A stretch of DNA of 64,000 bases from Escherichia coli (GTDB taxonomy: Bacteria; Pseudomonadota; Gammaproteobacteria; Enterobacterales; Enterobacteriaceae): assembly GCF_002854065.1 (NCBI RefSeq), contig NZ_CP024147.1; one strand, 5' to 3'. The notes beneath the pieces were generated by a model that was not told the DNA's origin, did no database searches, and saw only the letters and a program-made list of their open reading frames with translations. This document shows, piece by piece, positions 3,092 through 49,014 of this stretch (position 1 is the first letter of the stretch; every line of letters begins with the position of its first letter). A program made the position numbers and the translations under genes.

Positions 3092-3157
3092 AACTTCTCC
3101 CAACGTCGGGGGAATCTTCAATCTTCCCCCGAAACTACATCACAATATTTTATTCTT

Positions 3158-4477: not shown

Positions 4478-4541
4478 AGTCTTTATCTCTTATTAGTGCC
4501 AGAAAAGCAGCGCTTTCGCGCTGCACGTAGGGTAGTAGGTG

Positions 4542-5306: not shown

Positions 5307-5329
5307 TGTATTATTCCTTTATTTATCTC

Positions 5330-6361: not shown

Positions 6362-6577
6362 AAATTCCTCACTGGTCAGGTAGACACCTCGGAAGCATTT
6401 AAGCGGTTTTAATTGTTATTATTTGTGATGAAGATCACGTCAGAAAATTGTTACATTACTATGTTACGCATAACGTGATGTGCCTTGTAATTCTTATCAG
6501 CAGAAATAAAAAAACGTGAAATTATTATGCCACCAGGCGTAGTATCGCAGCAGGTAAGATGATTCAGGAGATTTTAA

Positions 6578-8359: not shown

Positions 8360-8444
8360 GCCGAAGTGGCGAAATCGGTAGACGCAGTTGATTCAAAATC
8401 AACCGTAGAAATACGTGCCGGTTCGAGTCCGGCCTTCGGCACCA
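8360..8444 (+). tRNA. leuX: tRNA-Leu (anticodon CAA)
   Basis: Sequence GCCGAAGTGGCGAAATCGGTAGACGCAGTTGATTCAAAATCAACCGTAGAAATACGTGCCGGTTCGAGTCCGGCCTTCGGCACCA read directly; anticodon loop TTCAAAA; long variable arm. Confidence 0.9.
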
Positions 8445-8481: not shown

Positions 8482-8642
8482 GTGCCTGAAATCCAGTATC
8501 CGCAAGGCTTTCCTCGCTTTTTCACTCAACCTAAGTCAACCTGATTCAATTTACATCAACTTACTGATGCGGGTACAACTGCGGGTATATCGCGGTTCGA
8601 TAATGTTTGTACCCACACAGAACCCTTGAAAGGATACTCATC

Positions 8643-13754: not shown

Positions 13755-13833
13755 TTCTGGTAAAATTCGCTAGCGAAACACGCCTTTTTAATCGCGCTTG
13801 CGGCATATTTCGCGAGCGAATGCAGGAAAAATA

Positions 13834-19675: not shown

Positions 19676-20848
19676 TTACTCTCCCTTTTTAAAATACATT
19701 GTAGAAGGTGCGCTTATTACTACGCAACCATCAATGCCTTTTATCTTCAATACCCCTTCCTTGAATTTAACATGTTCTTGTGTTGCTCGAGTGCAGTCCC
19801 ACAGGAAGCTGATGATATACGAATCCTTATATTTTTCGTCGACACGATAAAGTGACGCATCTTCTGCAATTTCTCCTATTAGTGCAGGAAACGATTTTTT
19901 TGTATCTTTTCGGTATTTTACTTCAATAATTGTGTGCAGTGATGGCAGATAAAGGTCTATGCGGGGGTTTTTTTGTCCGACAGGCTGAAGATTCACCTCA
20001 TCTGCAATATCGTTGAATATTGGCGCAAGTAGGATATAAAGCAGATTCTGAACATGATATTCATTTTCAACTTGCCACTTTACGGGCTCTGCGCCTCTGG
20101 TTCGACCTGAGTCCTCCCATGTCCATCGTTTTAACCCTGCAGGGATATGTTCCAGAAATCCTAGCAGGTCATCCAGTGTCCATCCAGACGGTGGAGCAAT
20201 GGCAATTTCCTGATTAATTTGATTAAAAACGTAAAGCATTACACACAAGAGAGTAACTGAAGGATTTTCTGTAGCTTGTGCTTGAAATTCGCTCATGAAA
20301 CGTCCGACAAGAGAAAGTCGGTTCTGATGACTATTGATCTTCAATAACTTTCGATAATGAAGGAAGAGTGGTATGCAGGCACTACTAAAGGAGGCTGATT
20401 CGCTGTTACCGACATATGCCGCGATATCTTTCTCGAAGATACTTAGATGGTTGCTTTCAATTTGCTGAGCCAGAAACCCTGAAATCCACTTTTCGAACTC
20501 GTGATTTATGCTCTCATCTTGCATCTGTGCCGTTAGCCATTTCACTGCCATTACACCGAACATATCCGATACCCAAGGTCTCGGTGTTGAATCAATCTTG
20601 GGAGCTTGTCCGAGCAGGCGAGAGACATCCTGGACCGAGACAGTTTCATCTAGAATACCTAAACCTGAAATTGCACAGCGTTGGTATAAAGATAGGTCCG
20701 CAAAGCTAAAATTCGTAATGCAGCTTTTATCTCCTTCCAGGAGACTAAAAAAGCAGGACTTAAATGGATCAATGTGAGCGGATTCGATCACCTTACTGTG
20801 AAAATAGTCGCGTAGCTGATAAACGTTTTCTTTCTCTATAGGAACCAT
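19676..20848 (-). CDS. PD-(D/E)xK-type nuclease-like protein, candidate pAgo-associated effector
   Basis: 390 aa; C-terminal motif PRIDLYLPSLHTIIEVKYRK (D...ExK); start overlaps the end of the pAgo reading frame by 13 bp. Confidence 0.5.
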   Translation of the reverse strand: MVPIEKENVYQLRDYFHSKVIESAHIDPFKSCFFSLLEGDKSCITNFSFADLSLYQRCAISGLGILDETVSVQDVSRLLGQAPKIDSTPRPWVSDMFGVMAVKWLTAQMQDESINHEFEKWISGFLAQQIESNHLSIFEKDIAAYVGNSESASFSSACIPLFLHYRKLLKINSHQNRLSLVGRFMSEFQAQATENPSVTLLCVMLYVFNQINQEIAIAPPSGWTLDDLLGFLEHIPAGLKRWTWEDSGRTRGAEPVKWQVENEYHVQNLLYILLAPIFNDIADEVNLQPVGQKNPRIDLYLPSLHTIIEVKYRKDTKKSFPALIGEIAEDASLYRVDEKYKDSYIISFLWDCTRATQEHVKFKEGVLKIKGIDGCVVISAPSTMYFKKGE

Positions 20849-21271
20849 TGTGAATGCCCTATTTTTCCAATCATGACTGAGTCACTCCAGCCCGGAAGCT
20901 GATTCAACCATCCTAAATTATGGGCGATAAGATCGGAATAAGTGATGGTAACTGGCATGGGATTGGGGAAGTAACTACGCCAGGAGTGTGATGCGAAACT
21001 GTAGAGCTGAGCACTCAAATACTTAATATCTTTGAAGGTCGAGTCTTTATGAACGTTGACGATCACACCACGTGGATGACCGTCCGTTTCTTGTCGTAAT
21101 TCACGTTGGCCGATCAGGTAAACAAGCATTTCGTTTTTAGAAAGCTTAAACGTATTTCCGCGATGTGTCGCCAGGCGTCCTAGACTGGCCCCCTGAATCT
21201 CCAGACAACCAATATCACTTAAATAAGTGATAGTCTTAATACTAGTTTTTAGACTAGTCATTGGAGAACAG

Positions 21272-21637
21272 ATGATTGATGTCTTAGGGCCGGAGAAACG
21301 CAGACGGCGTACCACACAGGAAAAGATCGCAATTGTTCAGCAGAGCTTTGAACCGGGGATGACGGTCTCCCTCGTTGCCCGGCAACATGGTGTAGCAGCC
21401 AGCCAGTTATTTCTCTGGCGTAAGCAATACCAGGAAGGAAGTCTTACTGCTGTCGCCGCCGGAGAACAGGTTGTTCCTGCCTCTGAACTTGCTGCCGCCA
21501 TGAAGCAGATTAAAGAACTCCAGCGCCTGCTCGGCAAGAAAACGATGGAAAATGAACTCCTCAAAGAAGCCGTTGAATATGGACGGGCAAAAAAGTGGAT
21601 AGCGCACGCGCCCTTATTGCCCGGGGATGGGGAGTAA
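21272..21637 (+). CDS. insC: IS2 transposase OrfA (InsC)
   Basis: [33 protein letters not shown]... matches IS2 InsC. Confidence 0.9.
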
Positions 21638-22500
21638 GCTTAGTCAGCCGTTGTCTCCGGGTGTCGCGTGCGCAGTTGCACGTCATTCTCAGACGAACCG
21701 ATGACTGGATGGATGGCCGCCGCAGTCGTCACACTGATGATACGGATGTGCTTCTCCGTATACACCATGTTATCGGAGAGCTGCCCACGTATGGTTATCG
21801 TCGGGTATGGGCGCTGCTTCGCAGACAGGCAGAACTTGATGGTATGCCTGCGATCAATGCCAAACGTGTTTACCGGATCATGCGCCAGAATGCGCTGTTG
21901 CTTGAGCGAAAACCTGCTGTACCGCCATCGAAACGGGCACATACAGGCAGAGTGGCCGTGAAAGAAAGCAATCAGCGATGGTGCTCTGACGGGTTCGAGT
22001 TCTGCTGTGATAACGGAGAGAGACTGCGTGTCACGTTCGCGCTGGACTGCTGTGATCGTGAGGCACTGCACTGGGCGGTCACTACCGGCGGCTTCAACAG
22101 TGAAACAGTACAGGACGTCATGCTGGGAGCGGTGGAACGCCGCTTCGGCAACGATCTTCCGTCGTCTCCAGTGGAGTGGCTGACGGATAATGGTTCATGC
22201 TACCGGGCTAATGAAACACGCCAGTTCGCCCGGATGTTGGGACTTGAACCGAAGAACACGGCGGTGCGGAGTCCGGAGAGTAACGGAATAGCAGAGAGCT
22301 TCGTGAAAACGATAAAGCGTGACTACATCAGTATCATGCCCAAACCAGACGGGTTAACGGCAGCAAAGAACCTTGCAGAGGCGTTCGAGCATTATAACGA
22401 ATGGCATCCGCATAGTGCGCTGGGTTATCGCTCGCCACGGGAATATCTGCGGCAGCGGGCTTGTAATGGGTTAAGTGATAACAGATGTCTGGAAATATAG
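21595..22500 (+). CDS. insD: IS2 transposase OrfB (InsD, DDE integrase domain)
   Basis: 301 aa ORF overlapping insC in the -1 frame; DDE transposase. Confidence 0.9.
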
Positions 22501-24987
22501 GGGCAAATCCACGTCCTTTCGACATAGTCGCCGTTGAAGAGTCGAACATGTGGAGTCCGTGATTCTCTGAGATTTTTACGAAGGCATACTCGATCTGATA
22601 ATCTCTATACTTGTCGATTACCGCACGGACTGCCTGAATCTCTTCCTTATTGAACTTTTTGACTTGTACATGGAAAATTAAGCGAATCGTATCGCCTTTC
22701 TGCCAGTTCATTCGCCTTTGTATTTTTTCTATATTCTCGGCCAGAACAGAGGTTAGAGCGTCGCAGTAAGCTTCCGGTACAACGGCTTTGGACGTACTCG
22801 AGACAATGTAACTACCGTCTCCCGAAAATACGGTGGTGATTCCCATAATGCGCTGATTATGGGCACCACGCTCTTGGACTATATTTGCACTGCCAATACC
22901 GATCACGAGTTCATGGGATAGTGTTGGCGATGATTTGAGTAGCCACGGGACTCCACCCATCTTCGCATAGCAGGCCAGTGACATGTTATTAAGCGAGTAG
23001 CCGAGTGAATAATCAGACTGCGTTAGCAGCTCTATTGTGAAATCCTGTACAGGAACTTGGTGCAAGTAAAATAGGCTTTTACCAAGATAGTAAGGATTAT
23101 CAGCAACTTTGAGTTTTTTAAATGACTGCCGCACCTGTACGAGGGCCAGATCCCAACGTCCTCCTTCATCAGCTTTTTTGCGTATTGCAGCTTCGATGGC
23201 ATTTTTGTATGCATCGACGCTGTCTGTGGATGTTTCGAACACTTCAACACGACTGGTTCCAAGTGCAAATTTACCCTCAAGGCCATTTCTGAAATATTTG
23301 CTATTAGCAATGCCTTTCAGAAGCTTACGGACGAACTGCTCGACTCGCCCTTTGTCATGTTGGGCGCAGATCACGCAGATTGATGGATCGTTCCTATCGA
23401 AGGTACGCTTTGTATAGGGGCCATTTTGTGTAAGACCCTTCTCAGTCCAATCTGCTTCACCGTTATCGTTGAAGACGAACACCGGCTTTTGCATCTGTGC
23501 ACAATCTTTTTGAATATCGGATGGATCCTCAATTTCGATACGCGTTCCATCGAGCAGCGAGATGTTTGTCGCTTGGATATACTTCTTAAGGGCGTCGATG
23601 CGGTCTTTTTTATTCTCGCCTCCGTTGAAAATGGAAACGGACTGCCGAATATGTTCGACAATGGAGTCTTTCTTCGTACCATGCGTATGAAGGATGTAGT
23701 CGTCAAAATTAGCTCGACTAGCTTCGAGATAAACGTCTTTAGCCTCAGCATGAACTGCTTGGCCGTCGGGACGAATGACACTCAGAGTTCTCCCTTCGTG
23801 GCAGCTTTCTACAAACCCTAAAAGTTTTCTAAATCCGTCGTCCTGCTCGGTGACGACGTAGCGACCAATAACATTGAATCCGGTTTTTAGGAAAAACAGG
23901 CAGTTCTCTTTTACTACACGACGTGTTGAGCAATCAATTATAAGACACGGCTGACCTTGGACAGTACGAGTGTCGATTGAATACTTGGCACAAATTTTTA
24001 AGGGATAAGCCTCACCAAGAATTGAGGCTAAAAGATTGTCTTTTGGTTTGGCACTTACCACCTCGATAGGATTGAAGCCGCAAGGAGTTCGACCCAATCC
24101 AGCGAAGTGCTTGAGCAGACCATCTTTAACCAGAGAGCAAAAGGTTCCCAAATTATCCTTTAGTTGCAGTGTCTGCGGTGTACCAGGTTTGGGGAACGTA
24201 CCATCACTCGAAAAAATCTGAATATTGTCACCCTGACGCCGGAAGACGTGCGTCACTTTATGGGAGGAGCGGAGGCTATCTAGAGTCGTCTTGTCGTAGG
24301 GGATCTGGACAAATTTCAACTCCAATTCAGGGATTTTCAGTGGAAACGCATTCAGGACAATCGGCAAGACCCACCCCTTTTGTGTTAGTGAAAAATCCAA
24401 CATACTGCGTCTCGATAATTATTCCCAGTCAGGGATGTGCTGGCACCTGACTGGCGCTCGCTGTGGGTTCCCTCCATCCGACTCTGGAAATAACTGTTTC
24501 AACAATTAATTTTCCTACACTGTAGCGTAAATTTTCTTAAGGCTCCCAAAGCGATTATTTAACTCTTTAAACTAATCTAATGTAAAGACTAGGGAAATGA
24601 TACGAGTGTAGTCTATGTCTTCGCTGTGATGAGGATCTATTCTTCGGTGTACATAGGGGTACTTAAGTTCCGATATAACACTCAACCAGCCTAAATTACA
24701 TCTGCAGGATCTCATGATTAAAATGATCTATGTGGTAGGTCATTAAATGGAGTAACCGGTCTCTCATAGGCAGGCGTAAGCCACCCCTGAGGGGCAGACA
24801 GATGCCATGCAGTTGAATGGTTTAAAGGGTTTGAGAGGGTGATAGTGCTGCGGTTGTCACACTATAGAGTTCTGGCGTAAAAACAGTCAGGCATCTCGGC
24901 ATTTATCAACTCGTCCAACGCTCCTCTGAAATTTGCGGGATCGGTTTAGTTTCAGGTGGGGGCGCTGAGGCCCCCGATTTATCGTAC

Positions 24988-37085: not shown

Positions 37086-38903
37086 CTACCTTAAACCTGC
37101 CCCTCTCATTCGCTCCTCCAGTTCATCCAGAAATGGGGAACGCCCTAGACGCATAGGGCCGTAGCGACCATCAACAAAACCGGAATACAGCATATGCACC
37201 TCGTCCCGTGCGCGGGTCAGCCCCACATAGAAAAGACGTCGGCTTTCACGCAGCTTCTCTGGCGTCTCATTACGCCACGGCAAATTCCCCAGATCTAAGC
37301 CGACCATGATAACCACGTCATATTCGCAACCTTTGGCTGAGTGAAGTGTCAGCAAATTGAGGTGCTCAGGTGAACCGTCACGACCACCTAGGCTCGTGAT
37401 ATCCAACATCGCTAACGCACCGCCTTCGGCAAGTGCTGCAGTCATGCGATCTAGTTGCTCAGCCTGATCAGAAAGCGTTGGTTCAGTTGCCAGCAGGGAA
37501 TCAACGAGACCGTTGCGCAACGACGCGACAAAATCGGATGCAGAATGTTGGTCGGCACGAAGTGCCCAAAGTAGCCTGGTTAACTCCTGCCCCTTACTCC
37601 GGGCGCATGCATCATCCAGCCTTGCCCGATGAAATGCCAGATAACGGTCTATAAGTCCGCGCAGTTGAGGGCGCCCGATACGCCAACCGCCAGCACACCA
37701 TGCTGCGCAATCCTCCACCCAGCTCGTCAAGGCAACTTTGCGATAAGGTGCTGCGGTATCCACACGAATGTAATCAAAACCGCTAGCTGTCACCGCATCG
37801 GCCACAACATCGCCGGCACGGTAGTCCTTGTACAGAATGGCGATATCACCCAGTGTTCGGCCCGGCTTAGCAGCCAACGCAGCAGGAATAATCTGCTCGA
37901 CAGCATAGACAGCCTGATCCCCCAAGCCATCCGGACACAGCTGGAACGCAATGGTTGTCTGGCGGTTTGGGTCGTTTGCGCGATAACCACGAACCTCACC
38001 CAACACCATCTCCGATGCATTCACGATGTCCGCTCCTGATCTATAGTTCAACTGGAGCCGGACTGTTTCAACGTCTCTCCTGCCTGCCAGTTCTAGTAGT
38101 AACGCACCATCGGCACCAGTGAAACCGTAAATAGATTGGTCTGCATCACCCACTGCAAATAAGCGTACGCCTCCCTCGAAAGCCAGACGTTTGACCATAC
38201 GATGGAGTGCCACGCCCAAATCTTGATATTCATCTACCGCAAGGATCGGAAATTTCGCCTGTACTAGGGGCAGAACCCAATCATGCTCAATTATCAGACG
38301 CTGACCAAATATCACCATATCGTCGTAGTCTATCAGCCCTTGCTGCCGCAATGCAGCTTCGTAGGCCTCGGCCCATGCAGCGAGTTCCTCCTCTGTACGC
38401 CAGGCAACGCTGTTGCGATTCAACACCGAACGGCGATGCCGTCCGAGATCAATAGCCTTATAGGGATGGTTTGCGCCAAAGAGACGGTCACCAGATTGTC
38501 GAAGTAACCGTTCGCTCTCGCGCTGAGACGCTACTGACAGCGGAAATGGGATTGGCAGATCGGCCAGTCGCCCATAGGGCATCAACAGATGGCGCAAGCA
38601 GAACCCATGAACGGTTCCAATAAAGAGATTCGGTGCCTCTCTAAGCCCCAGCGCTTCGAGACGACGGGTTAGCTCGCGTGCGCATTCTTGGCTATATGTG
38701 ATACATGCCGCACCACGTGGAGCTTGAACATCCTCAGCTAGGATTCGTGCCAGCTTCAGCACAAGCGTCTTTGTCTTACCACTCCCCGGGCCCGCGAGCA
38801 CCACGCAGTGTCCCTGGGAGTGATACGCGGATAACTGGCCCGGATTCCCGGCCAGCTCGGCAGCCTGAGCTAAGTAGGCTGCACTGACACTACGTGACGG
38901 CAT
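37086..38903 (-). CDS. gajB: UvrD/PcrA-family SF1 helicase, GajB-like
   Basis: Motifs VLAGPGSGKTKTL (Walker A), ILAVDEYQDLG (motif II), AVGDADQSIYGFTGA (motif III); start set at the ATG overlapping the upstream gene by 14 bp. Confidence 0.7.
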   Translation of the reverse strand: MPSRSVSAAYLAQAAELAGNPGQLSAYHSQGHCVVLAGPGSGKTKTLVLKLARILAEDVQAPRGAACITYSQECARELTRRLEALGLREAPNLFIGTVHGFCLRHLLMPYGRLADLPIPFPLSVASQRESERLLRQSGDRLFGANHPYKAIDLGRHRRSVLNRNSVAWRTEEELAAWAEAYEAALRQQGLIDYDDMVIFGQRLIIEHDWVLPLVQAKFPILAVDEYQDLGVALHRMVKRLAFEGGVRLFAVGDADQSIYGFTGADGALLLELAGRRDVETVRLQLNYRSGADIVNASEMVLGEVRGYRANDPNRQTTIAFQLCPDGLGDQAVYAVEQIIPAALAAKPGRTLGDIAILYKDYRAGDVVADAVTASGFDYIRVDTAAPYRKVALTSWVEDCAAWCAGGWRIGRPQLRGLIDRYLAFHRARLDDACARSKGQELTRLLWALRADQHSASDFVASLRNGLVDSLLATEPTLSDQAEQLDRMTAALAEGGALAMLDITSLGGRDGSPEHLNLLTLHSAKGCEYDVVIMVGLDLGNLPWRNETPEKLRESRRLFYVGLTRARDEVHMLYSGFVDGRYGPMRLGRSPFLDELEERMRGAGLR

Positions 38904-40674
38904 CGCAGATATACTCCAGTGCTTCACGAATGTAATCCGGGCATACATCCTCCGACACCGAGGGTGCCAGCGCTTGGGCGAACCGCCCTTTGCCAATTCG
39001 CTCAATCAGTTTCAACAACCGGACATTATCAAGCTGGTCCGTGTCATCCACCCACGCCTGTATCCTGTTCAGAGTAGCTCGTCTAGGAGACAATTCCTGC
39101 TCGATAACCAACTTCATGGCTTCGCCCAGTCCACCGGTAAACAGCTCTGGCTCCAGAGTGGTCTCATTGACGAAGCATCCAAAATCTCCGGCACGTGCAA
39201 TCACCTCCTCGGTAGTCATATCATCATGATCAACATCGCTCTCAAGCACGTCTAAGATATTGATAAATCTCTTACGAACCAGCGGCTCTCCATCCTCCTC
39301 AGGATCGCGGTCTGTCAGAATCACATGTGGAATATTGAGTCCCCGCGGCCCTAGGAGCTTCACATACGGAGTGAAATTTGTTCCACCGATCGAGCACACC
39401 GTGATCCCAAGCATATCTAGGGGAATATTAAGAGCATCAGCGAATGCTGGGACAAGAAAGCGTTCAGCATCCCCTTCCACCAAGATCACCCCACGTGAAA
39501 AGAATATTTCGCCGCGAGTGACATCGATATAGCGCTGCAGATCATCTTCGTCCCGCGGCGTAAACGGTGCGTTTGCCGTTGAAACCGCAATCGTCTTCCC
39601 TCCCTCCGGATCATGGCGCAGCAAAACGATGGATCTGATTGGTGTGACGCTGGCGATATGCGGGGAATGGGTGGTCAGGATCGTTGTCAACGGTGTTCCT
39701 TCATCACCATTGTCTCCGTCAGTCCCTAGGAAATAACGGTAAACCAGGCGCTGTACGTGCGGATGTAGGTGCGCTTCCGGCTCCTCGACTACGAAAAACG
39801 TATGGTCTCGTTCTCCGTCATTAACAAGACGATCAAGTTCGAGGCTTTTTAGGGCAAGAAAAATCAGATTAGCTGTCCCCAGACTGGCATCGCCAATGCC
39901 ACGAATGCCACTATCAAGCAGCAAACGCAGGCTACGTAGCAGCGCATCAACGCGAGTCGGTGCAAGTCCGAGCGATACCGGAACGGCATGTTGCTCACCT
40001 GCGATAGCTATCAACCTTTCGCTAATTCGTTCGGCTGTCGCTGCCACCTCATCATGATCAGCCAGTTCCCGTTGAGCCTCATCAACTTGGGTTTGAATCT
40101 CCTCACGAGTCTCGTCGTCCAGAGATGCGGACAGTTCTTCAATAAGCGGTCTTAAGGGTGAATTACGCCAGCTTGAAAGGTCCTTCTCGGCATCACGCAA
40201 CGCGCCTTGAACATCAATGGGCAACATACGGCGAAAGGCACCACCAATATGCATGTCAGGATCAGCTCCACCGAAGATCACATACTCATAATCTTTTAAC
40301 GATTCAGGAGCTCGATTTAACGCGGTTTTGGGCTGAAAGCGGTAGGTAAGACGGGCCACCATCGGAGGCCCCGGATTTAGGACACAGTCATTCAGATGAG
40401 CCATCAATCGGGGATCGTCAGTGAACTCAGTAAGATCCACTGAAATTTCGATGGTCTCCCCCAGTTTGTCTTCGCCCAATCCATCCCAAAAATGTTCAAA
40501 ACCCAGTTGACGGTCACGCTCAGACAACCCTGGGTCAAGAATCAGCTGCAGGCCGCGAATAAAATTGCTCTTGCCAACCTTGTTTTCACCAACAATAACA
40601 ATACTCTCACCCGTTTCAACATCAACATCGGAGAAGTTGGCGAAATTAATTAACCGGATTCGGGAAATCCGCAT
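38890..40674 (-). CDS. gajA: OLD-family ATPase with C-terminal TOPRIM nuclease domain, GajA-like
   Basis: N-terminal ABC ATPase (IRLINFANF, GENKVGKSN, VVEEPEAHLHP, LTTHSP) and C-terminal TOPRIM (VILVEGDAERFLVPAF). Confidence 0.7.
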   Translation of the reverse strand: MRISRIRLINFANFSDVDVETGESIVIVGENKVGKSNFIRGLQLILDPGLSERDRQLGFEHFWDGLGEDKLGETIEISVDLTEFTDDPRLMAHLNDCVLNPGPPMVARLTYRFQPKTALNRAPESLKDYEYVIFGGADPDMHIGGAFRRMLPIDVQGALRDAEKDLSSWRNSPLRPLIEELSASLDDETREEIQTQVDEAQRELADHDEVAATAERISERLIAIAGEQHAVPVSLGLAPTRVDALLRSLRLLLDSGIRGIGDASLGTANLIFLALKSLELDRLVNDGERDHTFFVVEEPEAHLHPHVQRLVYRYFLGTDGDNGDEGTPLTTILTTHSPHIASVTPIRSIVLLRHDPEGGKTIAVSTANAPFTPRDEDDLQRYIDVTRGEIFFSRGVILVEGDAERFLVPAFADALNIPLDMLGITVCSIGGTNFTPYVKLLGPRGLNIPHVILTDRDPEEDGEPLVRKRFINILDVLESDVDHDDMTTEEVIARAGDFGCFVNETTLEPELFTGGLGEAMKLVIEQELSPRRATLNRIQAWVDDTDQLDNVRLLKLIERIGKGRFAQALAPSVSEDVCPDYIREALEYICDAVT

Positions 40675-41229: not shown

Positions 41230-42105
41230 ATGAATAAACCTGACGGCCTTCAGGCCTTTGAACAACCGCTTGCGTCGCTTCCGTGCACACTTCGCCAGCT
41301 TATTCTTGAACGTATCCAGAACCTGACCCATTACGAGCCGGTGATTGGAATCATGGGCAAAAGTGGTACAGGTAAATCCTCTCTCTGCAACGAACTTTTC
41401 CGGGGCGAGGTGTCCCCGGTGAGTGACGTGAATGCCTGTACTCGCGACGTGCTGCGTTTCCGGTTACGCAGTGGGCGTCACAGCCTGGTGATTGTTGATT
41501 TACCGGGCGTGGGCGAAAACGGGCAGCGGGATCAAGAATACCGTGCCCTGTACCGTCGAATCCTGCCGGAGCTGGACCTGGTGCTGTGGGTCATTAAGGC
41601 CGATGATCGGGCACTAACCGTGGACGAGCAGTTCTGGCACGGTGTGATGCAAACTTACAGGCAAAAGGTACTGTTCGTGATTAACCAGGCCGACAAAATC
41701 GAACCCTGCCATGAATGGGATACCCTCACCAGCAAACCTTCACCGCACCAACTGGGAAATCTTAAAGCGAAGCAGGCTGCGATTATGGTGATGTTTAAAC
41801 CGCATCATCCGGTCTGTGTGGTGTCAGCCCGCACTGGATGGGGCATTGAGGAGATGGTGGCAGCCATGATGCGCTGTCTGCCTGACCGCGCCACCAGCCC
41901 GGTGGTGACACAACTGCACAGGAAACTCTGCACAGAGCCGGTAAAGTCGCAGGCTCGTGACAGTTTCGGTGAAGCTGTGGGCCGGGTTTTCGATACCGCA
42001 GAATCATCTTCGTTCCTGTCTACATCGCTGAAAACGGTGATTCGTAGCGTGCGTGATGCGGTGGTGTCGGTCGCACGGGCCGTCTGGGACTGGATATTCT
42101 TCTGA
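41230..42105 (+). CDS. YfjP/YkfA-family GTPase (prophage CP4-57-like)
   Basis: G1 motif GKSGTGKSS, DLPG, NQADK. Confidence 0.75.
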   Translation: MNKPDGLQAFEQPLASLPCTLRQLILERIQNLTHYEPVIGIMGKSGTGKSSLCNELFRGEVSPVSDVNACTRDVLRFRLRSGRHSLVIVDLPGVGENGQRDQEYRALYRRILPELDLVLWVIKADDRALTVDEQFWHGVMQTYRQKVLFVINQADKIEPCHEWDTLTSKPSPHQLGNLKAKQAAIMVMFKPHHPVCVVSARTGWGIEEMVAAMMRCLPDRATSPVVTQLHRKLCTEPVKSQARDSFGEAVGRVFDTAESSSFLSTSLKTVIRSVRDAVVSVARAVWDWIFF

Positions 42106-42348: not shown

Positions 42349-43065
42349 ATGACGCTTCAGGAGCGGCGACATGACCGGCTTGCCGTCAGGTTGTCGTTGA
42401 TTATCAGCCGCCTGGTGTCCGGTGAAACTCTGTTTATTCGCAAACTGGCAACTGAATTCGGGGTGTCAGAGCGCACGTTACGTCGTGACTTTCGGGAACG
42501 TCTGATGTATCTCGACCTGGATTATTACCAGGGGCAGTGCAGTCTGCGCTCGGATATTCACAGTACGCGGCAGGAAATAGATATTCTGACCTTTGCTCAC
42601 CGTACGGGGCTGGCCGGGGTTTTCCCGGGCTTTGACCGGCGACTGGTCAGCAGCCTGCTGGACTGTGATGATCGACCCTGTCTGGTATGGCATCAGGACA
42701 GACCTCATCCCCCGGCAGGAAAGCTCTCCTTCTACAGGCTGGTCAGAGCTATTTCTGAATGTCAGCGCATCACCATTCTGACTGAAGGGGAGCGTCATGA
42801 GGCCGTTGCACCTTACCGGCTAATCGCTCTGGACGGTTACTGGTATCTGGTCGCTGAACATAACAGGCAATTACGTGTCTTCCGGCTGGATGAGATTCAT
42901 CTGGTAAGGCCATCGCGGGAAACATTTATTCGCAGTGAGCTTCTCTATCAGCTGTCGGAGGATAAACATTTTATCTCTGCCTTACCTCATTTCCGTTTTA
43001 TTCAGCAGTCGCTGAATTCATTTTCTCCCTCAGAAAGTCGGGGGCAATCCGGACAAACTGATTAG
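42349..43065 (+). CDS. WYL-domain transcriptional regulator (YfjR-like)
   Basis: N-terminal HTH ([14 protein letters not shown]) and WYL-like region (DGYWYLVA). Confidence 0.65.
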
Positions 43066-43624: not shown

Positions 43625-44098
43625 ATGCGACTGCCTTACGTAATATTTACATTAGCTATGCTGGCTTCTGTATCAACAGCACAGGCTATTCCCAATATGT
43701 GGACGAGTGGTTTTGGGATGGGCGTGACCGAATATATTATTACCAGCCCGGAGAAGGTGGTGTTTAATCTGAACTGTACTGGCAATCCGGATGCGCAGAA
43801 TATTCTGCAACACGGTGTTGATCTCACCCTGCCTGATGGAACATCAGTAAGCTCTCATGACGACGGAACGGAAATCACGGTCGTCATGGATAACAGTCAG
43901 TATCCGTTACCGTCATTCCTCGGCTGGCGAAACGGTGACAATGCCTGGGTGTCATTTATTGACGCCCTGAGCCAGTCTGCGAATTTTGATGTTTACGTCA
44001 ACGATAAAAAAGTCGGCACCTTCAGTCCGGGGCTGAAGAATACGCAGAAAGAGCTGTCTGACCTCAGTGAGTGCCGGACCACACACTACAGCGATTAG
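43625..44098 (+). CDS. Secreted protein (YfjT-like)
   Basis: Signal peptide MRLPYVIFTLAMLASVSTAQA. Confidence 0.5.
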   Translation: MRLPYVIFTLAMLASVSTAQAIPNMWTSGFGMGVTEYIITSPEKVVFNLNCTGNPDAQNILQHGVDLTLPDGTSVSSHDDGTEITVVMDNSQYPLPSFLGWRNGDNAWVSFIDALSQSANFDVYVNDKKVGTFSPGLKNTQKELSDLSECRTTHYSD

Positions 44099-44218
44099 TT
44101 ACTTACATTTCAGACCTCTCCAGCCCGCTACGCACCAACACCAGATAGCAACAGGCCATGCTCCTTCGGGAACATGGCCTTTTTTGTTTTTATTTGATTA
44201 TCAGATAAGGAGTTAGCT

Positions 44219-45040
44219 ATGCGACTAGCCAGCCGCTTTGGCCGTATAAACCAGATACGCCGTGACCGGCCTCTGACCCACGAAGAGCTGATGAGTCATG
44301 TACCCAGCGTGTTCGGGAGTGACAAGCATGAATCTCGTTCAGACAGGTACACCTACATCCCGACCATCACCATCCTCGAAAGCCTGCAGCGGGAAGGCTT
44401 TGAGCCGTTCTTTGCCTGCCAGACAAAAGTTCGCGACCAGAGCAAGCGGGAGCACACCAAGCACATGCTTCGACTGCGTCGCTCCGGGCAACTGACCGGG
44501 CATCAGGTGCCGGAAATCATTCTACTTAACAGCCATGACGGCTCATCAAGCTACCAGATGCTGCCGGGCCTGTTTCGTGGCGTCTGTACCAACGGCCTGG
44601 TCTGCGGTCAGTCATTCGGAGAAGTGCGGGTACCGCATAAAGGGAATGTTGTCGAGAAGGTGATTGAAGGGGCTTACGAAGTGCTCGGTGTGTTTGACCG
44701 GGTGGAGGAGAAGCGCGATGCAATGCAGTCACTGGCACTGCCAGAACCAGCCCGTAACGCCCTGGCGAATGCCGCGCTGAAGTATCGCTTTGGTGAAGAC
44801 CACCAGCCGGTCACGGTATCGCAGTTGCTGACCCCACGTCGCCGGGAGGACTACAGCGATGACCTGTGGACCGTATACCAGCGCGTGCAGGAGAACCTGA
44901 TGAAAGGAGGTCTGTCAGGGCGAACCGCTCAGGGGAAAAGCAGCCGCACCCGTGCTGTTATCGGCATTGACGGCGATGTGAAACTCAATCGCGCCCTGTG
45001 GATTATGGCAGAAAACATGCTCGAATTTTTCGGGCGTTAA
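44219..45040 (+). CDS. DUF932-family protein (YfjQ-like)
   Basis: 273 aa; matches the remembered CP4-57/CP4-44 family and gene order. Confidence 0.6.
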   Translation: MRLASRFGRINQIRRDRPLTHEELMSHVPSVFGSDKHESRSDRYTYIPTITILESLQREGFEPFFACQTKVRDQSKREHTKHMLRLRRSGQLTGHQVPEIILLNSHDGSSSYQMLPGLFRGVCTNGLVCGQSFGEVRVPHKGNVVEKVIEGAYEVLGVFDRVEEKRDAMQSLALPEPARNALANAALKYRFGEDHQPVTVSQLLTPRRREDYSDDLWTVYQRVQENLMKGGLSGRTAQGKSSRTRAVIGIDGDVKLNRALWIMAENMLEFFGR

Positions 45041-45070
45041 ACAACCGTTCCGGCATAAGGAGATAGTTTA

Positions 45071-45511
45071 ATGGATACCCACAACCCTGAGTTTGCTGAG
45101 CAGGCAGCAATTACTGCCTCGGTAGTCCCTGACGAGTTACGTATCGGCTTCTGGCCAAAGCGCTTTGGATCTATCCCACAATGGATAACCCTTGAGCCCC
45201 AAATATTTGGCTGGATGGATCGTCTGTGCGCTGATTACAGCGGCGGCGCCTGGAGCTTTTACACACTCAGCAACGGCGGCGCATTTATGGCTCCGGAGCC
45301 CGACGGTGAGAAGTGGACGTTGTTCAACCCGATGAATGGAAACGATGCGGAGATGAGCGGAGAGGCTGCCGGTATAGCGGCCTGCCTGATGGCATACAGC
45401 CACCACGCTTGTCGCACCGAATGTGACGCGATGACTGAGCACTATTATCGCTTACGTGACTACGCGCTAAACCATCCGGAATGCAGCGCCATTATGTATC
45501 TAATCGACTGA
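45071..45511 (+). CDS. Antirestriction protein, ArdB/KlcA family (YfjX-like)
   Basis: 146 aa; family call from the conserved core (FYTLSNGGAFMAPE). Confidence 0.65.
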   Translation: MDTHNPEFAEQAAITASVVPDELRIGFWPKRFGSIPQWITLEPQIFGWMDRLCADYSGGAWSFYTLSNGGAFMAPEPDGEKWTLFNPMNGNDAEMSGEAAGIAACLMAYSHHACRTECDAMTEHYYRLRDYALNHPECSAIMYLID

Positions 45512-45523
45512 GGAATACCTGAC

Positions 45524-46066
45524 ATGAATATCGCATTATCCCCGGTATCATCGCAGCCTGAACTCTTTCCGCTGGCGGTTATGGCCCAGCATAGTTGCCT
45601 GCTCCCCGCGACCTCCGGATTGACACCTTATGCCCAACGGACCATTCGACGTGCTATCAACCTGCTGGATAAATATCTGCGCCAGCCCGGCATGTCCTTT
45701 ACCTCAAGCACGGCTGCCCGTGACTGGCTTCGGTTACAGCTGGCAGGACAAGAACGGGAAGTGTTTATGGTGCTCTATCTCGATAACCAGCACCGTTTAC
45801 TGGAGAGTGAAACGCTATTTGCCGGTTCGGTTAACCATGTCCAGGTCCATCCCCGTGAGGTGGTGAAGTCAGCGCTTCGCTTCAATGCTGCTGCTGTTGT
45901 GCTGGCGCATAACCATCCATCCGGTGATCCGGAGCCCAGCCAATGTGACCGCAACATTACGGGCAGGCTTAAAGAAGCGCTGGCACTGGTTGATGTGAAC
46001 ACTCTCGATCATCTGGTTATCGGTTCAGATGGAATTGTGTCGTTTGCAGAGCGAGGCTGGATATGA
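45524..46066 (+). CDS. RadC-like JAB/MPN domain protein (YfjY/YeeS-like)
   Basis: JAMM motif HNHPSGDPEPSQCD. Confidence 0.8.
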   Translation: MNIALSPVSSQPELFPLAVMAQHSCLLPATSGLTPYAQRTIRRAINLLDKYLRQPGMSFTSSTAARDWLRLQLAGQEREVFMVLYLDNQHRLLESETLFAGSVNHVQVHPREVVKSALRFNAAAVVLAHNHPSGDPEPSQCDRNITGRLKEALALVDVNTLDHLVIGSDGIVSFAERGWI

Positions 46067-46076
46067 GGGCACTTCA

Positions 46077-46418
46077 ATGAAATCTACTGACTCAGAGAAC
46101 GATTCATTTCTCAAGTGGGGTCTGAATCGTAATGTGACACCTTGCTTTGGCGCTCGTCTGGTACAGGAGGGAAACCGGCTGCACTATCTGGCTGACCGGG
46201 CCAGTATCACCGGTAAGTTCAGCGAAGCAGAATGTCTTAAGCTGGATATGGCATTCCCGCATTTTATTAGCCAGATGGAATCGATGCTGACTACTGGTGA
46301 AATGAATCCTCGCCATGCCCACTGTGTCACCCTGTACCACAATGGTTTCACCTGCGAAGCCGATACCCTTGGCAGTTGCGGCTACGTATACATCGCCGTT
46401 TACTCCACCCATCGTTAA
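46077..46418 (+). CDS. Type IV toxin-antitoxin antitoxin, CbeA/YeeU/YfjZ family
   Basis: Conserved [22 protein letters not shown]...CGYVY region. Confidence 0.8.
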
Positions 46419-46438
46419 CTACTTTCACAAGAGCAAAT

Positions 46439-46780
46439 ATGAAAACTCTACCTGCAACAAATCCGCAGGCGGCGAAGCTATGTCTGTCGCCCGTGGCTGT
46501 CTGGCAAATGCTGCTTGCACGCCTGCTGGAACAACATTATGGCCTGACACTCAACGACACGCCATTCAGTGATGAAACGGTAATTCAGCAACATATCGAT
46601 GCCGGTATATCTTTGGCCGATGCCGTTAATTTTCTGGTGGAAAAGTACGGGCTGGTTCGTATTGATCGCAGGGGATTCGACTGGCAAGAACAGTCCCCAT
46701 ATCTGCGGGCAGTCGATATTCTGCGGGCGCGACAGGCAACTGGTTTATTGAAAAGAAATCGTATTAGCGCGGCACGGTGA
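46439..46780 (+). CDS. Type IV toxin-antitoxin toxin, CbtA/YeeV/YpjF family
   Basis: 113 aa immediately downstream of the CbeA-like gene. Confidence 0.75.
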
Positions 46781-47043
46781 ATATTGGGAATAGCCTTCCT
46801 GATTCACACTGCAGCTTTCCTTACTTATTTAATTTACTCATTCCAAAAAGCACCTGCCGATGCTGGTTGGTGCTTTTACTTATATGGACGAAATATCATG
46901 CAAATAGAAGCTGTAATTTTAACTGGGCACATTATCGCAAGTACAATCCGGGAATGCTGGGCCGTCGTTGTTGATGGTTTTGACGCATGCGGCGAACAAG
47001 CTTATGATCCAGCTTAATTTCTTTTCCTCATGAAGGGACGGGT

Positions 47044-48051
47044 ATGGGCAACAGAATGTGGATGATTCGCGGTGACGGCGGCAAGCTCTATGACGATTTT
47101 CGCGATAAGCAAATTGTAGGCATCGGTTGGTCTCAGCTGGCTCCATTAGTCAAACCCGGCCTGTCCCGAGCCCAGTTACTCGCCTTATACCAGGAGGCAG
47201 ATCCCTTAACAAAGCTGGGAACAGCCCGTTCTGGTGCATCGCAGGTCTGGCGTTTTGTGAATGAGATCCAAAAGGGTGATTGGGTTATTACCTATTCGCC
47301 AGCCAACCGTACTTATTTGCTAGGCAAAGTCACATCCGACTTCCAATATCATCCTGAATGGGTGGAAGAGGGGATGGGGATCGCTCGGCAGGTTAAATGG
47401 AATACTCAAGAAATCGACCGCGATAGACTGTCTGTTGCTACCAAAAACACATTGGGTTCTACGCTGACGGTTTTTCAGCTTCCAGAATATGCGCTAGAAG
47501 AGCTTTTGCAGGATAAGAAACCCACTATAGATGTAATTACTCAGAATCCAGTTGCAATGGATGAAGATGAGGTCGTTTCTGATCCGCTTCGCGATATGGA
47601 AATGCTGGCGTTTGAGGGTATCAAAGATCGTATTAACTCTCTTGATTGGGACGAGATGCAAAATCTTGTTGCCGGAGTTTTACGCAGTATGGGCTATAAA
47701 ACGCAGGTTTCACCTGCGGGAGCCGATCGGGGTAAAGACATCATTGCTTCACCTGATGGGTTCGGTTTTGAAAATCCGCGTATTATCGTTGAGGTAAAGC
47801 ACCGCAGGGAACAGATGGGAAGCCAACAGATACGCAGCTTTATCGGCGGTCGCCATAAAGACGATCGCGGGCTTTATGTCAGTACAGGGGGTTTTACGAA
47901 AGATGCTCGATATGAAGCCGACCGTTCGACGATACCACTGACGCTCTGGACACTTGATGATCTCGTCCGTGCGCTTATTGAGAACTACGAACAAGTTGAT
48001 ATCGAGACTAAACTTTTGGTGCCTCTGAAGAAAACTTTCCTGCCTGCCTGA
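47044..48051 (+). CDS. Mrr-like restriction endonuclease (Mrr catalytic domain) with an uncharacterised N-terminal domain
   Basis: C-terminal core GADRGKDIIA...RIIVEVKHRR...GLYVSTGGFTKDA resembles the Mrr catalytic domain. Confidence 0.6.
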   Translation: MGNRMWMIRGDGGKLYDDFRDKQIVGIGWSQLAPLVKPGLSRAQLLALYQEADPLTKLGTARSGASQVWRFVNEIQKGDWVITYSPANRTYLLGKVTSDFQYHPEWVEEGMGIARQVKWNTQEIDRDRLSVATKNTLGSTLTVFQLPEYALEELLQDKKPTIDVITQNPVAMDEDEVVSDPLRDMEMLAFEGIKDRINSLDWDEMQNLVAGVLRSMGYKTQVSPAGADRGKDIIASPDGFGFENPRIIVEVKHRREQMGSQQIRSFIGGRHKDDRGLYVSTGGFTKDARYEADRSTIPLTLWTLDDLVRALIENYEQVDIETKLLVPLKKTFLPA

Positions 48052-48211: not shown

Positions 48212-48430
48212 TTCGAGTCCGGCCTTCGCACCTTCGCACCTTCGCACCATCGGAACATCAATAGACATCAACGGACGTTTTTTTATGACTGAAATCCGCG
48301 CCACACAAGGCTTTTCGCTATTTTTCGCTCAACCTAAGTCAACCTACATCAACTTACTGATGTGGATACAGCTACAGCTGCGGCTATACCCCGATTCGAT
48401 AATGTTTGTACCCACACAAAACCCTTGAAA
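48212..48430. repeat. Partial direct repeat of the leuX 3' end plus integrase-upstream region (island right boundary / older att site)
   Basis: About 220 bp imperfect direct repeat of 8422-8640 (shared strings ttcgagtccggccttcg..., ...cggttcgataatgtttgtacccacaca.aacccttgaaagg). Confidence 0.75.
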
Positions 48431-49014
48431 GGCTACAAGGCTGAAATTGTCTAAACCATAGAGATGATTTTTATGATCCAGTCTTTCTCTTGTTGAGATA
48501 GTTCCAGTTTGCTCACTCGTGTTAAGAAGGTATTGATCACCTGAACATCCGAATTGGTGAGCCTATTTAATAGAGCGGGTGGTATACCTTTACTAACAAT
48601 CGCTTTGCGGTGACTTTCGTAGTTTTTATTACTCATTGTTGATCCTAAAAAATCATTGTATGGCGGCATTGATCGTTTCCAGCAACCTTTACTTACTCAC
48701 TTCGAACTGCATCCTCGTAGACTGTTCCACTACAATAATCGAAAAGGCGCGGATGTCCATTCAGGTATCCCGCTAATACGTATAGCAATAACAATGGCTT
48801 ATGCGGCGCGCGCTGTTCACCCTTGTGCCAGATTTTTATATTGGCAATTGCCTGCTGTAGCGATTTACTGGAAGCTATTGATATCCCTGGCAGTGAAATA
48901 ATTGCGATCATGCTCGCAAATTTTCTGCTGTTCAAGCCTGCAAGTGAAGATATATTACCTTGATCTCATTTGTTTTTTTGCTGCCTGTTCTGAGAACGTA
49001 TAAGGACATTCTCC

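Follow-up and report, generated by a model that had tools for sequence, protein, structure and literature searches.

The anti-restriction proteins YafX and YfjX of Escherichia coli K-12 and ORF14 of E. coli CFT073 were reported in 2009 to relieve restriction by EcoKI, EcoAI, EcoR124I, and StySBLI 10- to 9250-fold in vivo, with little anti-modification and independently of ClpXP (PMC2836571). EcoKI is the type I enzyme relieved most by YafX and YfjX, and K-12's own EcoKI is relieved several-thousand-fold when the two proteins are expressed from plasmids (PMC2836571). ArdB bound neither EcoKI nor the EcoKI methyltransferase in vitro (PMC2836571). EcoKI was not inhibited in vitro in the 2009 work; other enzymes were partly or fully inhibited in vitro in reports of 2023 and 2025. 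The action of ArdB from plasmid R64 does not depend on the recognition site, and BREX and type III restriction-modification (RM) are unaffected by it (PMC10149784). Deletion of D141, the C-terminal residue of this ArdB, abolishes activity; in a 30-fold excess the protein inhibits BlihIA in vitro (PMC12429846). AcrIC11, a homologue of KlcA, stops a type I-C system at the Cas3 step but does not block Cascade binding (PMC10810201).

Expression of these genes has also been studied. Deletion of native klcA or ardB from plasmids brought no measurable change in restriction, because the activity depends on the expression level (PMC11602122). Transcription of the type IV toxin–antitoxin genes in the K-12 module operons is weak (PMC5371832); MqsA represses lfgA, and H2O2 induces the yfjXY-ypjJ-yfjZF operon (PMC10846083). 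EcoKI acting on unmodified chromosomal sites is controlled by ClpXP-dependent restriction alleviation (PMC2836571; PMC11109961).

The window analysed here is the whole stretch of 64,000 nt of an E. coli chromosome (contig NZ_CP024147.1, assembly GCF_002854065.1), and the genes and sites given with coordinates below lie on its plus strand. It carries a leuX island of about 39.8 kb, which holds both an ArdB module and a complete hsdRMS system. The gene of tRNA-Leu(CAA), leuX, was located at 8360–8444 by ARAGORN, Rfam, and exact pattern match, and its 3' end at 8422–8444 is the left attachment site. It is followed by a P4-type tyrosine integrase at 8607–9899 with Arm-DNA-bind_3, Phage_int_M, and Phage_integrase domains. 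The right attachment site, attR, at 48,212–48,249 is a degenerate leuX 3' end; it contains an indel, and the 8-bp unit CCTTCGCA stands in it three times in tandem. It was detected only through alignment with strain XJ23PTE1 and afterwards confirmed; when a second leuX 3' end was sought by 23-mer and 18-mer patterns with up to three mismatches, none was found. About 190 bp beyond attR are ~82% identical to the sequence 3' of leuX and are what is left of a second island in tandem. The final gene of the island, ahead of attR at 47,044–48,051, encodes an Mrr-type restriction endonuclease (Mrr_cat, 1.9e-24; PADLOC candidate PDC-S02, 1.8e-81). Across all of the window, Rfam matched the tRNA alone, and the window contains neither a relaxase nor conjugation genes.

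Both ArdB and hsd genes lie between leuX and the degenerate leuX 3' end, and therefore inside one att-bounded island. From the ArdB gene, hsdS ends at a distance of 28.3 kb and hsdR starts at 34.8 kb, so the first-pass annotation, which had placed the two about 30 kb apart on the same element, was correct. The island is a mosaic, in which the integrase-proximal cargo and the ArdB-bearing distal backbone differ in history. An IS2 insertion disrupts the neighbouring pAgo gene.

The ArdB-family gene at 45,071–45,511 encodes 146 aa (RefSeq WP_001757892.1, "antirestriction protein"). The ORF is intact, from ATG at 45,071 to the stop codon ending at 45,511, and is preceded by a Shine–Dalgarno sequence AAGGAG at 45,057–45,062, 8 nt 5' of the ATG by direct sequence reading. 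The protein matched Pfam PF03230 over profile positions 2–92 of 92 with 127.3 bits and 2.5e-37 (gathering score 25) and PHROG 10132 "anti-restriction protein" with 6.8e-56. No NCBIfam model matches it, which is uninformative as to the family. At the sequence level, residues 13–146 align with PDB 2WJ9 (E 1.1e-71, ~80% identity) and residues 10–146 with KlcA, PDB 2KMG (E 6.2e-23). The K-12 paralogues YafX and YfjX are 68% and 70% identical, respectively. The C-terminus ends in YLID; YafX and YfjX share this D146 in the alignment, and 2WJ9 and KlcA have their last Asp at the same position. With 16.4 kDa, pI of 4.58, and 20 Asp and Glu versus 8 Lys and Arg residues, the protein fits in size and acidity the tested members of the family (~134–157 aa, pI ~4.6–5.1; Table 1, PMC2836571).

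Against alleles at dS of 0.5–0.9, dN/dS is 0.095–0.158, which shows purifying selection on the gene, and the 146–147-aa form is found with 80–90% identity in Klebsiella, Enterobacter, Salmonella, Serratia, and Pantoea. By all these comparisons the gene is recognized as a real but ordinary anti-restriction gene of ArdB type, already annotated in RefSeq. The ORF and the PF03230, PHROG 10132, 2WJ9, and KlcA matches thus agree with its first description as ArdB/KlcA-like. The reading that it is an inert leftover in a cryptic element undergoing decay, and no longer has a function under selection, is disfavoured and scarcely credible, as the degenerate attR with its indel and triplicated unit, the IS2 in the pAgo gene, and a frameshifted antitoxin in strain A41 stand against dN/dS of ~0.1 across these alleles, an intact ORF with a good ribosome-binding site, and the conserved form in five other genera.

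The surrounding module lies at the integrase-distal end of the island and has the order GTPase-WYL-DUF932-ArdB-RadC-CbeA-CbtA. Its first gene, at 41,230–42,105, encodes a YfjP/YkfA-like GTPase (MMR_HSR1, Dynamin_N; "GTPase family protein" in RefSeq) and occupies the ykfA position of CP4-6. It is followed at 42,349–43,065 by a YfjR-like regulator with WYL and HTH_DeoR domains; in RM9513, the equivalent position holds a "WYL domain-containing protein" with 50% identity to it. The K-12 YfjR is a regulator of its own operon (PMC8249747), and the YfjR-like protein is a candidate repressor of the module. The DUF932 gene (YfjQ/YafZ-like; PF06067 at 8.8e-50) at 44,219–45,040 is directly 5' of ArdB; its stop codon is 30 nt from the ArdB start, and both genes are probably co-transcribed. 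Only 12 nt 3' of ArdB is a RadC/JAB gene (YfjY/LfgB-like; PF04002 at 1e-44) at 45,524–46,066; LfgB of K-12 is described as a protease of the lfgABCDE operon (PMC10846083). A type IV antitoxin of the CbeA/YeeU family (46,077–46,418; PF06154 at 2.6e-54) and a toxin of the CbtA family (46,439–46,780; PF06755 at 3.2e-62), both with RefSeq coordinates mapped from L001, complete the module, which stops about 1.4 kb short of attR.

In a consensus scan of 40.6–48.3 kb, promoters and terminators were as numerous as in shuffled sequence, and no terminator-like site was found between the DUF932, ArdB, RadC, and toxin–antitoxin genes. The ArdB region has G+C content of 54% in the base-composition profile and is not AT-rich; therefore, composition gives no support for H-NS silencing of ArdB. 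The same backbone order recurs in CP4-6, CP4-57, and islands at tRNA-Ser and elsewhere, and the Pfam gene order compared with these islands bears out the placement of ArdB in a CP4-57-like module.

The type I RM system of the island comprises hsdR (10,230–13,754), hsdM (13,798–15,402), and hsdS (15,402–16,778), all intact and full length according to Pfam and full-length PADLOC profiles. HsdM is 59% and HsdR 40% (full length) identical to the proteins of K-12 EcoKI, and the conserved regions of HsdS 47%; hsdM DNA is ~69% identical to that of EcoKI, and the architecture is alike. This similarity is well below that usual within the classical type IA family. The system is classified on these identities as EcoKI-like, a distant relative resembling type IA. 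Assignment to type IB, suggested by an HsdR match to PF08463 (EcoEI_R_C), was rejected, since both HsdM and HsdR are related to EcoKI over their full length. The stretch at about 15–20 kb of the window, from hsdS through the pAgo-associated nuclease gene, is AT-rich, with 37–43% GC.

Downstream of hsdS, at 16,775–19,647, are a PtuA-like ABC ATPase (to 18,481) and a 388-aa zinc-finger HNH protein (18,481–19,647). The ATPase matched Pfam AAA_21 and AAA_15, PADLOC PtuA PDLC00293 at 5e-44 with many other PtuA models, and, more weakly, AriA. The HNH protein has an invariant motif CxxC..DH..N..CxxCN. It matched PtuB profiles weakly (1e-7) and candidates PDC-M62B and PDC-M01B better (3e-12), had no Pfam match and nothing meaningful in the PDB sequence search, and is longer than the PtuB of Retron-Eco7 (216 residues). 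Overlapping start and stop codons couple the pair translationally to hsdS. The ATPase/HNH description in the first-pass annotation is upheld by Pfam, PADLOC, and motif. The order hsdR-hsdM-hsdS-ATPase-HNH is kept in unrelated Gammaproteobacteria, L008 and L011 (Fic inserted), and is conserved from 56% down to 31% identity of the HNH protein. Rheinheimera (L009) keeps hsdM-hsdS-ATPase-HNH, and Methylomonas has a decayed remnant. In three distant taxa, hsdM-hsdS precede the pair, which is not an autonomous two-gene Septu. The pair behaves as a Septu-like accessory of an EcoKI-like RM subfamily, not as a stand-alone system.

ArdB homologues were found in 4937 of 5426 complete E. coli genomes (~91%), with a median of three copies, and 13,759 of the 13,777 copies are chromosomal. 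AntiDefenseFinder lists 3132 ArdB/KlcA instances in Escherichia. The hsdS-ATPase-HNH segment is present in one of the same 5426 genomes. An identical ArdB module occurs in four records with another type I system and TIR/WYL cargo, and in strains XJ23PTE1 and 744 the identical backbone goes with a type I system unrelated to the present one. In strain A41, a related backbone (~94% identical DNA), its antitoxin frameshifted, adjoins a third type I system. No type I system is in view on the ArdB islands CP4-6, CP4-57, RM9513, O157, and RM8082, and no PF03230 gene is within 9 kb on either side of RM-ATPase-HNH in Vreelandella and in a metagenome scaffold. The ArdB module and hsdS-ATPase-HNH are found apart, and therefore the two modules are not co-inherited.

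A type I system is on the same or the adjoining island at four of nine ArdB loci inspected, a small sample, of which three alone were picked without bias and which is partly skewed to leuX islands. With so few loci, a weak non-random association of ArdB with type I RM is conceivable. The unusualness of ArdB and type I RM on one island, implied when the locus was first described, finds no support in view of the 91% of genomes with ArdB and the other type I pairings. Co-residence of the two is common and already studied, and it does not signal special cross-talk. ArdB probably shares the island with hsdRMS because these islands consist of variable integrase-proximal defence cargo and a constant distal backbone.

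The most probable reading, with a probability of about 0.72, is that this is an ordinary ArdB gene of the island backbone, which has a role at entry and shares the island with hsdRMS incidentally. As a YfjX/YafX/ORF14-type protein, ArdB is small and acidic but not a DNA mimic. In sufficient amount it would block the HsdR-dependent step of restriction by type I enzymes, presumably with that step as its target, whatever the recognition sequence, and methylation would be largely spared. Its selected role is most likely to shield the unmodified island, or DNA transferred with it, from type I systems of the recipient on entry. Once the island is established, ArdB is probably too weakly expressed to disarm resident type I enzymes; for this strain, we infer transient expression at entry and silence in the steady state. 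ArdB and hsdRMS would then not be a dedicated functional pairing. From the present analysis this reading takes the family, the intact and constrained gene, the module, the island bounds, the modular independent inheritance, and the ubiquity; from the papers on homologues it takes anti-restriction against types IA–ID without anti-modification, the dependence on expression level, and the low or repressed state of the K-12 operons.

It is unlikely, although consistent with several observations, that ArdB helps its own RM system to become established, a burst of it in a naive host letting HsdM/HsdS methylate the chromosome before HsdR is active. The homologues are strongly anti-restriction with little anti-modification (PMC2836571), the four of nine loci have type I systems on or next to the ArdB island, and the island RM system is similar to EcoKI, the enzyme most relieved by YafX and YfjX (PMC2836571). 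However, the ArdB module is equally found where no type I system comes into view, and one backbone goes with three type I systems that are unrelated to each other; co-adaptation is thus absent. Moreover, ClpXP-dependent alleviation already controls EcoKI, and a dedicated helper is therefore not required.

A domesticated or broader role, in a stress operon of lfg type or as an inhibitor of Cas3-like helicase-nuclease defences, with the anti-type-I activity secondary, is also improbable. The K-12 operon yfjXY-ypjJ-yfjZF, induced by H2O2 and repressed by MqsA (PMC10846083), fits such a role, as do the inhibition of type I-C Cas3 by AcrIC11 (PMC10810201), the low-frequency passage of Cre-YfjX through the F type IV secretion system, and the strong purifying selection on long-resident chromosomal copies. 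On the other hand, the phenotype of the lfgA deletion was not complemented and was ascribed to polarity on lfgB (PMC10846083), enterobacterial ArdB proteins are not known to act against CRISPR, and ArdB(R64) had no effect on BREX and type III RM (PMC10149784).

The first-pass annotation saw in the ATPase/HNH module a possible anti-restriction sensor. By analogy with known guardian systems, the type I complex could restrain the PtuA-like ATPase/HNH pair, which would fire when an ArdB-type protein inhibits the complex. The translational coupling to hsdS, the conserved gene order, and the invariant HNH motif are compatible with this, precedents exist in PrrC-EcoprrI with Stp, PARIS with Ocr, and Ronin and EcoR22I, and PtuAB are releasable effectors in retron systems. 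Such cross-talk is nevertheless very unlikely. The described triggers are Stp for PrrC-EcoprrI, Ocr for PARIS, and ArdA, Ocr, and Aop1 for Ronin and EcoR22I, and no guardian is reported in the literature searched to respond to an ArdB/KlcA-type protein. The known triggers, DNA mimics and Stp, bind the enzyme, whereas ArdB bound neither EcoKI nor its methyltransferase in vitro, and the signal described for stand-alone Septu is ATP depletion rather than anti-restriction. RM-ATPase-HNH occurs elsewhere with no PF03230 within 9 kb, and in 5425 of 5426 E. coli genomes the ArdB module is found with no such system; each is found alone, and the pairing in the window is therefore incidental.

It is accordingly a far-fetched proposal, made by analogy, that the EcoKI-like RM system and the ATPase/HNH pair could form a two-layer unit that fires when ArdB/KlcA-type proteins block the HsdR step. 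If true, no guardian known before would sense anti-restriction proteins of the non-mimic class. The island would then need to silence its own ArdB, e.g., through the WYL regulator, or ArdB would serve as a self-addiction trigger by which derepression or loss of the element is penalised.

The outcome is mostly a useful negative result, as an anti-restriction gene beside an RM system seems paradoxical, yet is normal for genomic islands of E. coli. As YafX and YfjX relieve K-12's own EcoKI, the restriction-relief check first proposed for this gene was essentially done on proteins 68–70% identical to it, and this main experiment was published in 2009 for proteins 68–80% identical to the ArdB of the window. 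Interest lies at the level of the family, in the way a non-mimic stops the restriction step of all type I families, and the Cas3 step in the case of one homologue, and in the way chromosomal copies spare resident systems. The locus is a natural test bed, because ArdB, an intact EcoKI-like system, and the RM-coupled ATPase/HNH pair share one strain. Its sequence offers no argument for an interaction of the three.

In comparison with known systems, the nearest structure is PDB 2WJ9, which we take, from its paper's description, to be ArdB of E. coli CFT073 PAI-II (ORF14, NP_752219). ORF14 is chromosomal and island-borne like the ArdB of the window and relieves type IA, IB, IC, and ID restriction (PMC2836571). 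The window ArdB is N-terminally shorter than ORF14 (146 versus 157 aa) and does not have its three-residue Asp insertion. YfjX (LfgA, CP4-57) and YafX (CP4-6) have flanks as here, with RadC/JAB and a CbeA-CbtA-type pair on the 3' side and GTPase, WYL, and DUF932 on the 5' side. The K-12 modules also carry DUF905 and DUF987 genes, both absent from the module of this island, and DUF932 is several genes from ArdB in K-12 but directly upstream in the window. K-12 CP4-6 and CP4-57 have no type I RM within 6 kb on either side of the ArdB paralogues, and the EcoKI genes of K-12 are at a separate chromosomal locus beside mrr and mcrBC.

KlcA (IncP plasmids pBP136 and RP4; 2KMG) and ArdB of plasmids pKM101 and R64 belong to the same Pfam family; for KlcA, ~35% identity is estimated from the 2KMG alignment. 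These plasmid proteins resemble the window ArdB in the C-terminal Asp, size, and acidity, but their genes are in plasmid contexts, whereas the window ArdB is in a chromosomal island module with a WYL regulator upstream. In pKM101, dedicated regulatory sequences reportedly control expression of the plasmid anti-restriction genes, to judge by the title of the 1993 paper. PrrC is embedded in EcoprrI, and the ATPase and nuclease of the window are likewise physically coupled to type I RM genes. The candidate effector of the window is an HNH protein with a weak likeness to PtuB, while those of the guardians are a HEPN anticodon nuclease, a Toprim nuclease, and the small membrane protein RonA.

There is nothing out of the ordinary about the ArdB gene at 45071-45511, which belongs to a well-characterised family, has been annotated before, and sits where such genes are usually found. 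It lies on the plus strand, starts with ATG and has 146 codons; AAGGAG is placed 8 nt 5' of the start, and the gene itself begins 30 nt past the DUF932 stop codon. The first-pass annotation had named an ArdB/KlcA-like anti-restriction protein here, and this was borne out by matches to Pfam PF03230 'Antirestriction protein' (127.3 bits, cutoff 25, entire profile) and to PHROG 10132 'anti-restriction protein' (6.8e-56). Among the solved structures searched, 2WJ9 was matched at E 1.1e-71 over residues 13-146, with about 80% identity as read by eye from the alignment, followed by KlcA (2KMG, E 6.2e-23). The product is acidic (pI 4.58) and is 68% and 70% identical to YafX and YfjX of K-12, respectively. 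An identical protein, WP_001757892.1 of E. coli VTB96935v, carries the RefSeq label 'antirestriction protein', and the 146-147-aa form is kept at 80-90% identity in Klebsiella, Enterobacter, Salmonella, Serratia, Pantoea, and other genera. The G+C content of the gene is 54%, i.e., it is not AT-rich. Its dN/dS was 0.095-0.158 against the alleles of strains A41 and RM9513 (dS 0.5-0.9), values that clearly indicate purifying selection, so the gene is no decaying relic.

The window is a segment of the E. coli chromosome in which tRNA-Leu(CAA) leuX (8360-8444) is followed by a P4-type integrase (8607-9899). The 3' end of leuX recurs in degenerate form (attR) at 48212-48249, and therefore the island extends over about 8445-48249 (about 39.8 kb), with nanM, nanC, and the fim operon on its far flank. 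The island contains hsdRMS (10230-16778) as well as the ArdB gene, 28.3 kb apart when measured to the hsdS end and 34.8 kb to the hsdR start, which agrees with the earlier placement of both on one island about 30 kb apart. The attR at 48212-48249 reads TTCGAGTCCGGCCTTCGCACC, then two more CCTTCGCA units, with A as the last base; CCTTCGCA stands three times in tandem in the window (48212-48460 region) and once in strain XJ23PTE1. The roughly 190 bp that come after attR share about 82% identity with what lies downstream of leuX; they are the remnant of a second, tandem island, from its integrase-upstream region. The integrase of that second island survives in XJ23PTE1 and in strain 744; together with Hachiman cargo it is present in both and deleted in the window. 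On the other side of leuX, idnK/idnDOTR presumably lie between yjgR and ahr (2093-7141), going by ORF sizes and the K-12 map. These genes are absent from VTB96935v, the best-matching complete genome, and the window would therefore derive from another strain, although VTB96935v is 100% identical to it over the island segments compared (44000-47000 and 15402-19647).

Next to the integrase is a five-gene operon (10230-19647) of hsdR, hsdM, hsdS, an ABC ATPase gene, and a gene for a 388-aa protein, with overlapping start and stop codons. Then come a class II pAgo and its associated nuclease, and after them small metabolic and toxin genes (yjhP, yjhX, and others). An IS2 copy (21182-22512, 1331 bp, 5-bp target duplication CGTCC) sits in the 3' part of the pAgo gene and cuts its ORF to 689 aa, while VTB96935v has the intact 743-aa gene; the window pAgo gene is split off from its REase-domain partner at 19676-20848. 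A complete Gabija system, with strong PADLOC matches for GajA (38890-40674, minus strand) and GajB (37086-39005, minus strand), lies immediately upstream of the GTPase gene, the first of the ArdB module, and is divergent from it. The final gene before attR encodes an Mrr-type endonuclease (47044-48051, plus strand) with an Mrr_cat domain, matching PADLOC candidate PDC-S02 at full length (1.8e-81); each of the four leuX island variants examined has kept it.

An anti-restriction gene beside a restriction-modification (RM) system had been presented as a paradox, and this did not hold, since the arrangement is the norm in E. coli. By sensitive blastn, homologues of the ArdB gene were found in 4937 of 5426 complete E. 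coli genomes (median 3, maximum 13 copies), and 13,759 of the 13,777 places are chromosomal. AntiDefenseFinder lists 3132 ArdB/KlcA instances in Escherichia, and in K-12 yafX and yfjX coexist with EcoKI. A type I system was present on the same or the adjoining island in four of nine distinct ArdB loci inspected. Of three loci chosen without bias from a ranked list, M8 has one about 9 kb from the ArdB gene and the other two have none. In A41 (locus L012, 24453-30450) and M8 (locus L016, 4843-10839), type I systems adjoin CP4-like ArdB modules at different chromosomal sites and have identical gene lengths (hsdR 3117 bp, hsdS 1206 bp, hsdM 1557 bp). From gene lengths, our guess would be one and the same system, in which case this island family would repeatedly carry type I cassettes as cargo.

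The ArdB allele was found at at least 99% identity in eight records, the identical 3-kb ArdB module in four, and the hsdS-ATPase-HNH segment in one of the 5426 genomes. XJ23PTE1 and 744 share the distal backbone of the window, running from yjhP through Gabija to ArdB-CbtA-Mrr, and neither has the hsdS-ATPase-HNH segment. In XJ23PTE1 the leuX integrase is adjoined by an unrelated type I system (25-27% identity) with WYL and TIR genes. A41 has the backbone and a third type I system just past the island end, and RM9513 carries different cargo (a DNA methyltransferase, DEAD/DEAH- and SNF2-family helicases, an S8 peptidase, and an AAA ATPase). Gabija is kept with the backbone in XJ23PTE1, 744, and A41. 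Co-residence of ArdB with type I systems is thus frequent, involves unrelated RM systems, and reflects island architecture, with variable defence cargo at the integrase and a constant distal module.

For close homologues, the question was already addressed experimentally by Serfiotis-Mitsa et al. (PMC2836571), who placed YafX, YfjX, the CFT073 island ArdB (ORF14), two KlcA, and a Legionella ArdB on uninduced plasmids and scored relief of phage lambda restriction. Restriction by EcoKI (IA), EcoAI (IB), EcoR124I (IC), and StySBLI (ID) was relieved 6160-, 10-, 251-, and 1650-fold by YfjX and 9250-, 27-, 7510-, and 1080-fold by YafX, respectively. Anti-modification was low in most gene-system combinations, ClpXP was dispensable for the anti-restriction effect, and the purified proteins neither inhibited nor bound EcoKI in vitro. 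The action of ArdB(R64) does not depend on the recognition site; BREX and type III RM are unaffected by it, and EcoAI and EcoR124I are inhibited in part in vitro (PMC10149784). At 30-fold excess, ArdB(R64) fully inhibits BlihIA (PMC12429846). The KlcA homologue AcrIC11 blocks Cas3-dependent degradation and leaves Cascade binding unaffected (PMC10810201). As a whole, the results suggest an action of the family on the helicase-nuclease step and not on target recognition.

The island hsdR, hsdM, and hsdS are intact, with full-length profile matches. EcoKI is a distant relative (HsdM 59% and HsdR 40% identity over full length) and was the type I enzyme relieved most by YafX and YfjX (PMC2836571); by this analogy, ArdB made in quantity would be expected to disarm the island RM. 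In K-12, transcription is weak for the type IV toxin-antitoxin genes that belong to these operons (PMC5371832), MqsA represses and oxidative stress induces the lfgA (yfjX) operon (PMC10846083), and the WYL regulator YfjR controls its own operon (PMC8249747). When klcA or ardB was removed from the plasmids that naturally carry it, restriction did not change measurably, since the activity varies with the level of expression (PMC11602122). The data on relatives point to low expression in the established state, where the ArdB gene would be silent or weakly expressed, and it might be derepressed upon entering a cell without the regulator. A promoter scan of the ArdB module region was uninformative.

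The earlier description of an hsdS-coupled ATPase/HNH module is accurate. Both genes overlap hsdS and one another, and the ATPase matches the PtuA profile (PADLOC, 5e-44) and, more weakly, AriA. The 388-aa protein has a zinc-finger HNH signature (C160-x2-C163, D186-H187, N203, C208-x2-C211-N212) that is invariant in 13 homologues, down to 28% identity; its best profiles are PADLOC candidates PDC-M62B and PDC-M01B, then PtuB. The hsdR product is a long form of 1174 aa with N-terminal DUF4145. The full gene order recurs in Vreelandella (HNH protein 56% identical) and, with a Fic gene inserted, on a metagenome scaffold (31%); Rheinheimera retains hsdM-hsdS-ATPase-HNH (47%), and Methylomonas has a decayed remnant. 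The recurring order marks the pair as a conserved accessory of this RM subfamily; Payne et al. list accessories of this type as 'embedded' candidates. The operon is a candidate RM-coupled second-layer defence and, although outside the ArdB gene coordinates, the most interesting object nearby.

A guardian role for the pair, as an anti-restriction sensor, is conceivable by analogy with PrrC/EcoprrI-Stp, PARIS-Ocr, Ronin, and EcoR22I, and with PtuAB, which serve as releasable effectors in retrons. However, the triggers reported for these guardians in the literature searched are Stp, Ocr, ArdA, and Aop1, and no ArdB-type protein is among these; ArdB bound neither EcoKI nor its methyltransferase in vitro (PMC2836571), and the RM-ATPase-HNH system and the ArdB module were clearly inherited independently. 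We consider cross-talk between the pair and ArdB very improbable, and island architecture remains our reading of the co-residence.

The plus-strand gene order of the module is GTPase, WYL-HTH regulator, two secreted/lipoprotein-like proteins, DUF932, ArdB, RadC/JAB, CbeA-family antitoxin, CbtA-family toxin, and Mrr-type endonuclease. It has the order in common with K-12 CP4-6 (ykfA ... yafZ ... yafX-ykfG-ykfH-yafW-ykfI) and CP4-57 (yfjR ... yfjX-yfjY-ypjJ-yfjZ-ypjF), and the term CP4-57-like module was well chosen. Unlike both K-12 elements, the module is without DUF905 and DUF987 genes.
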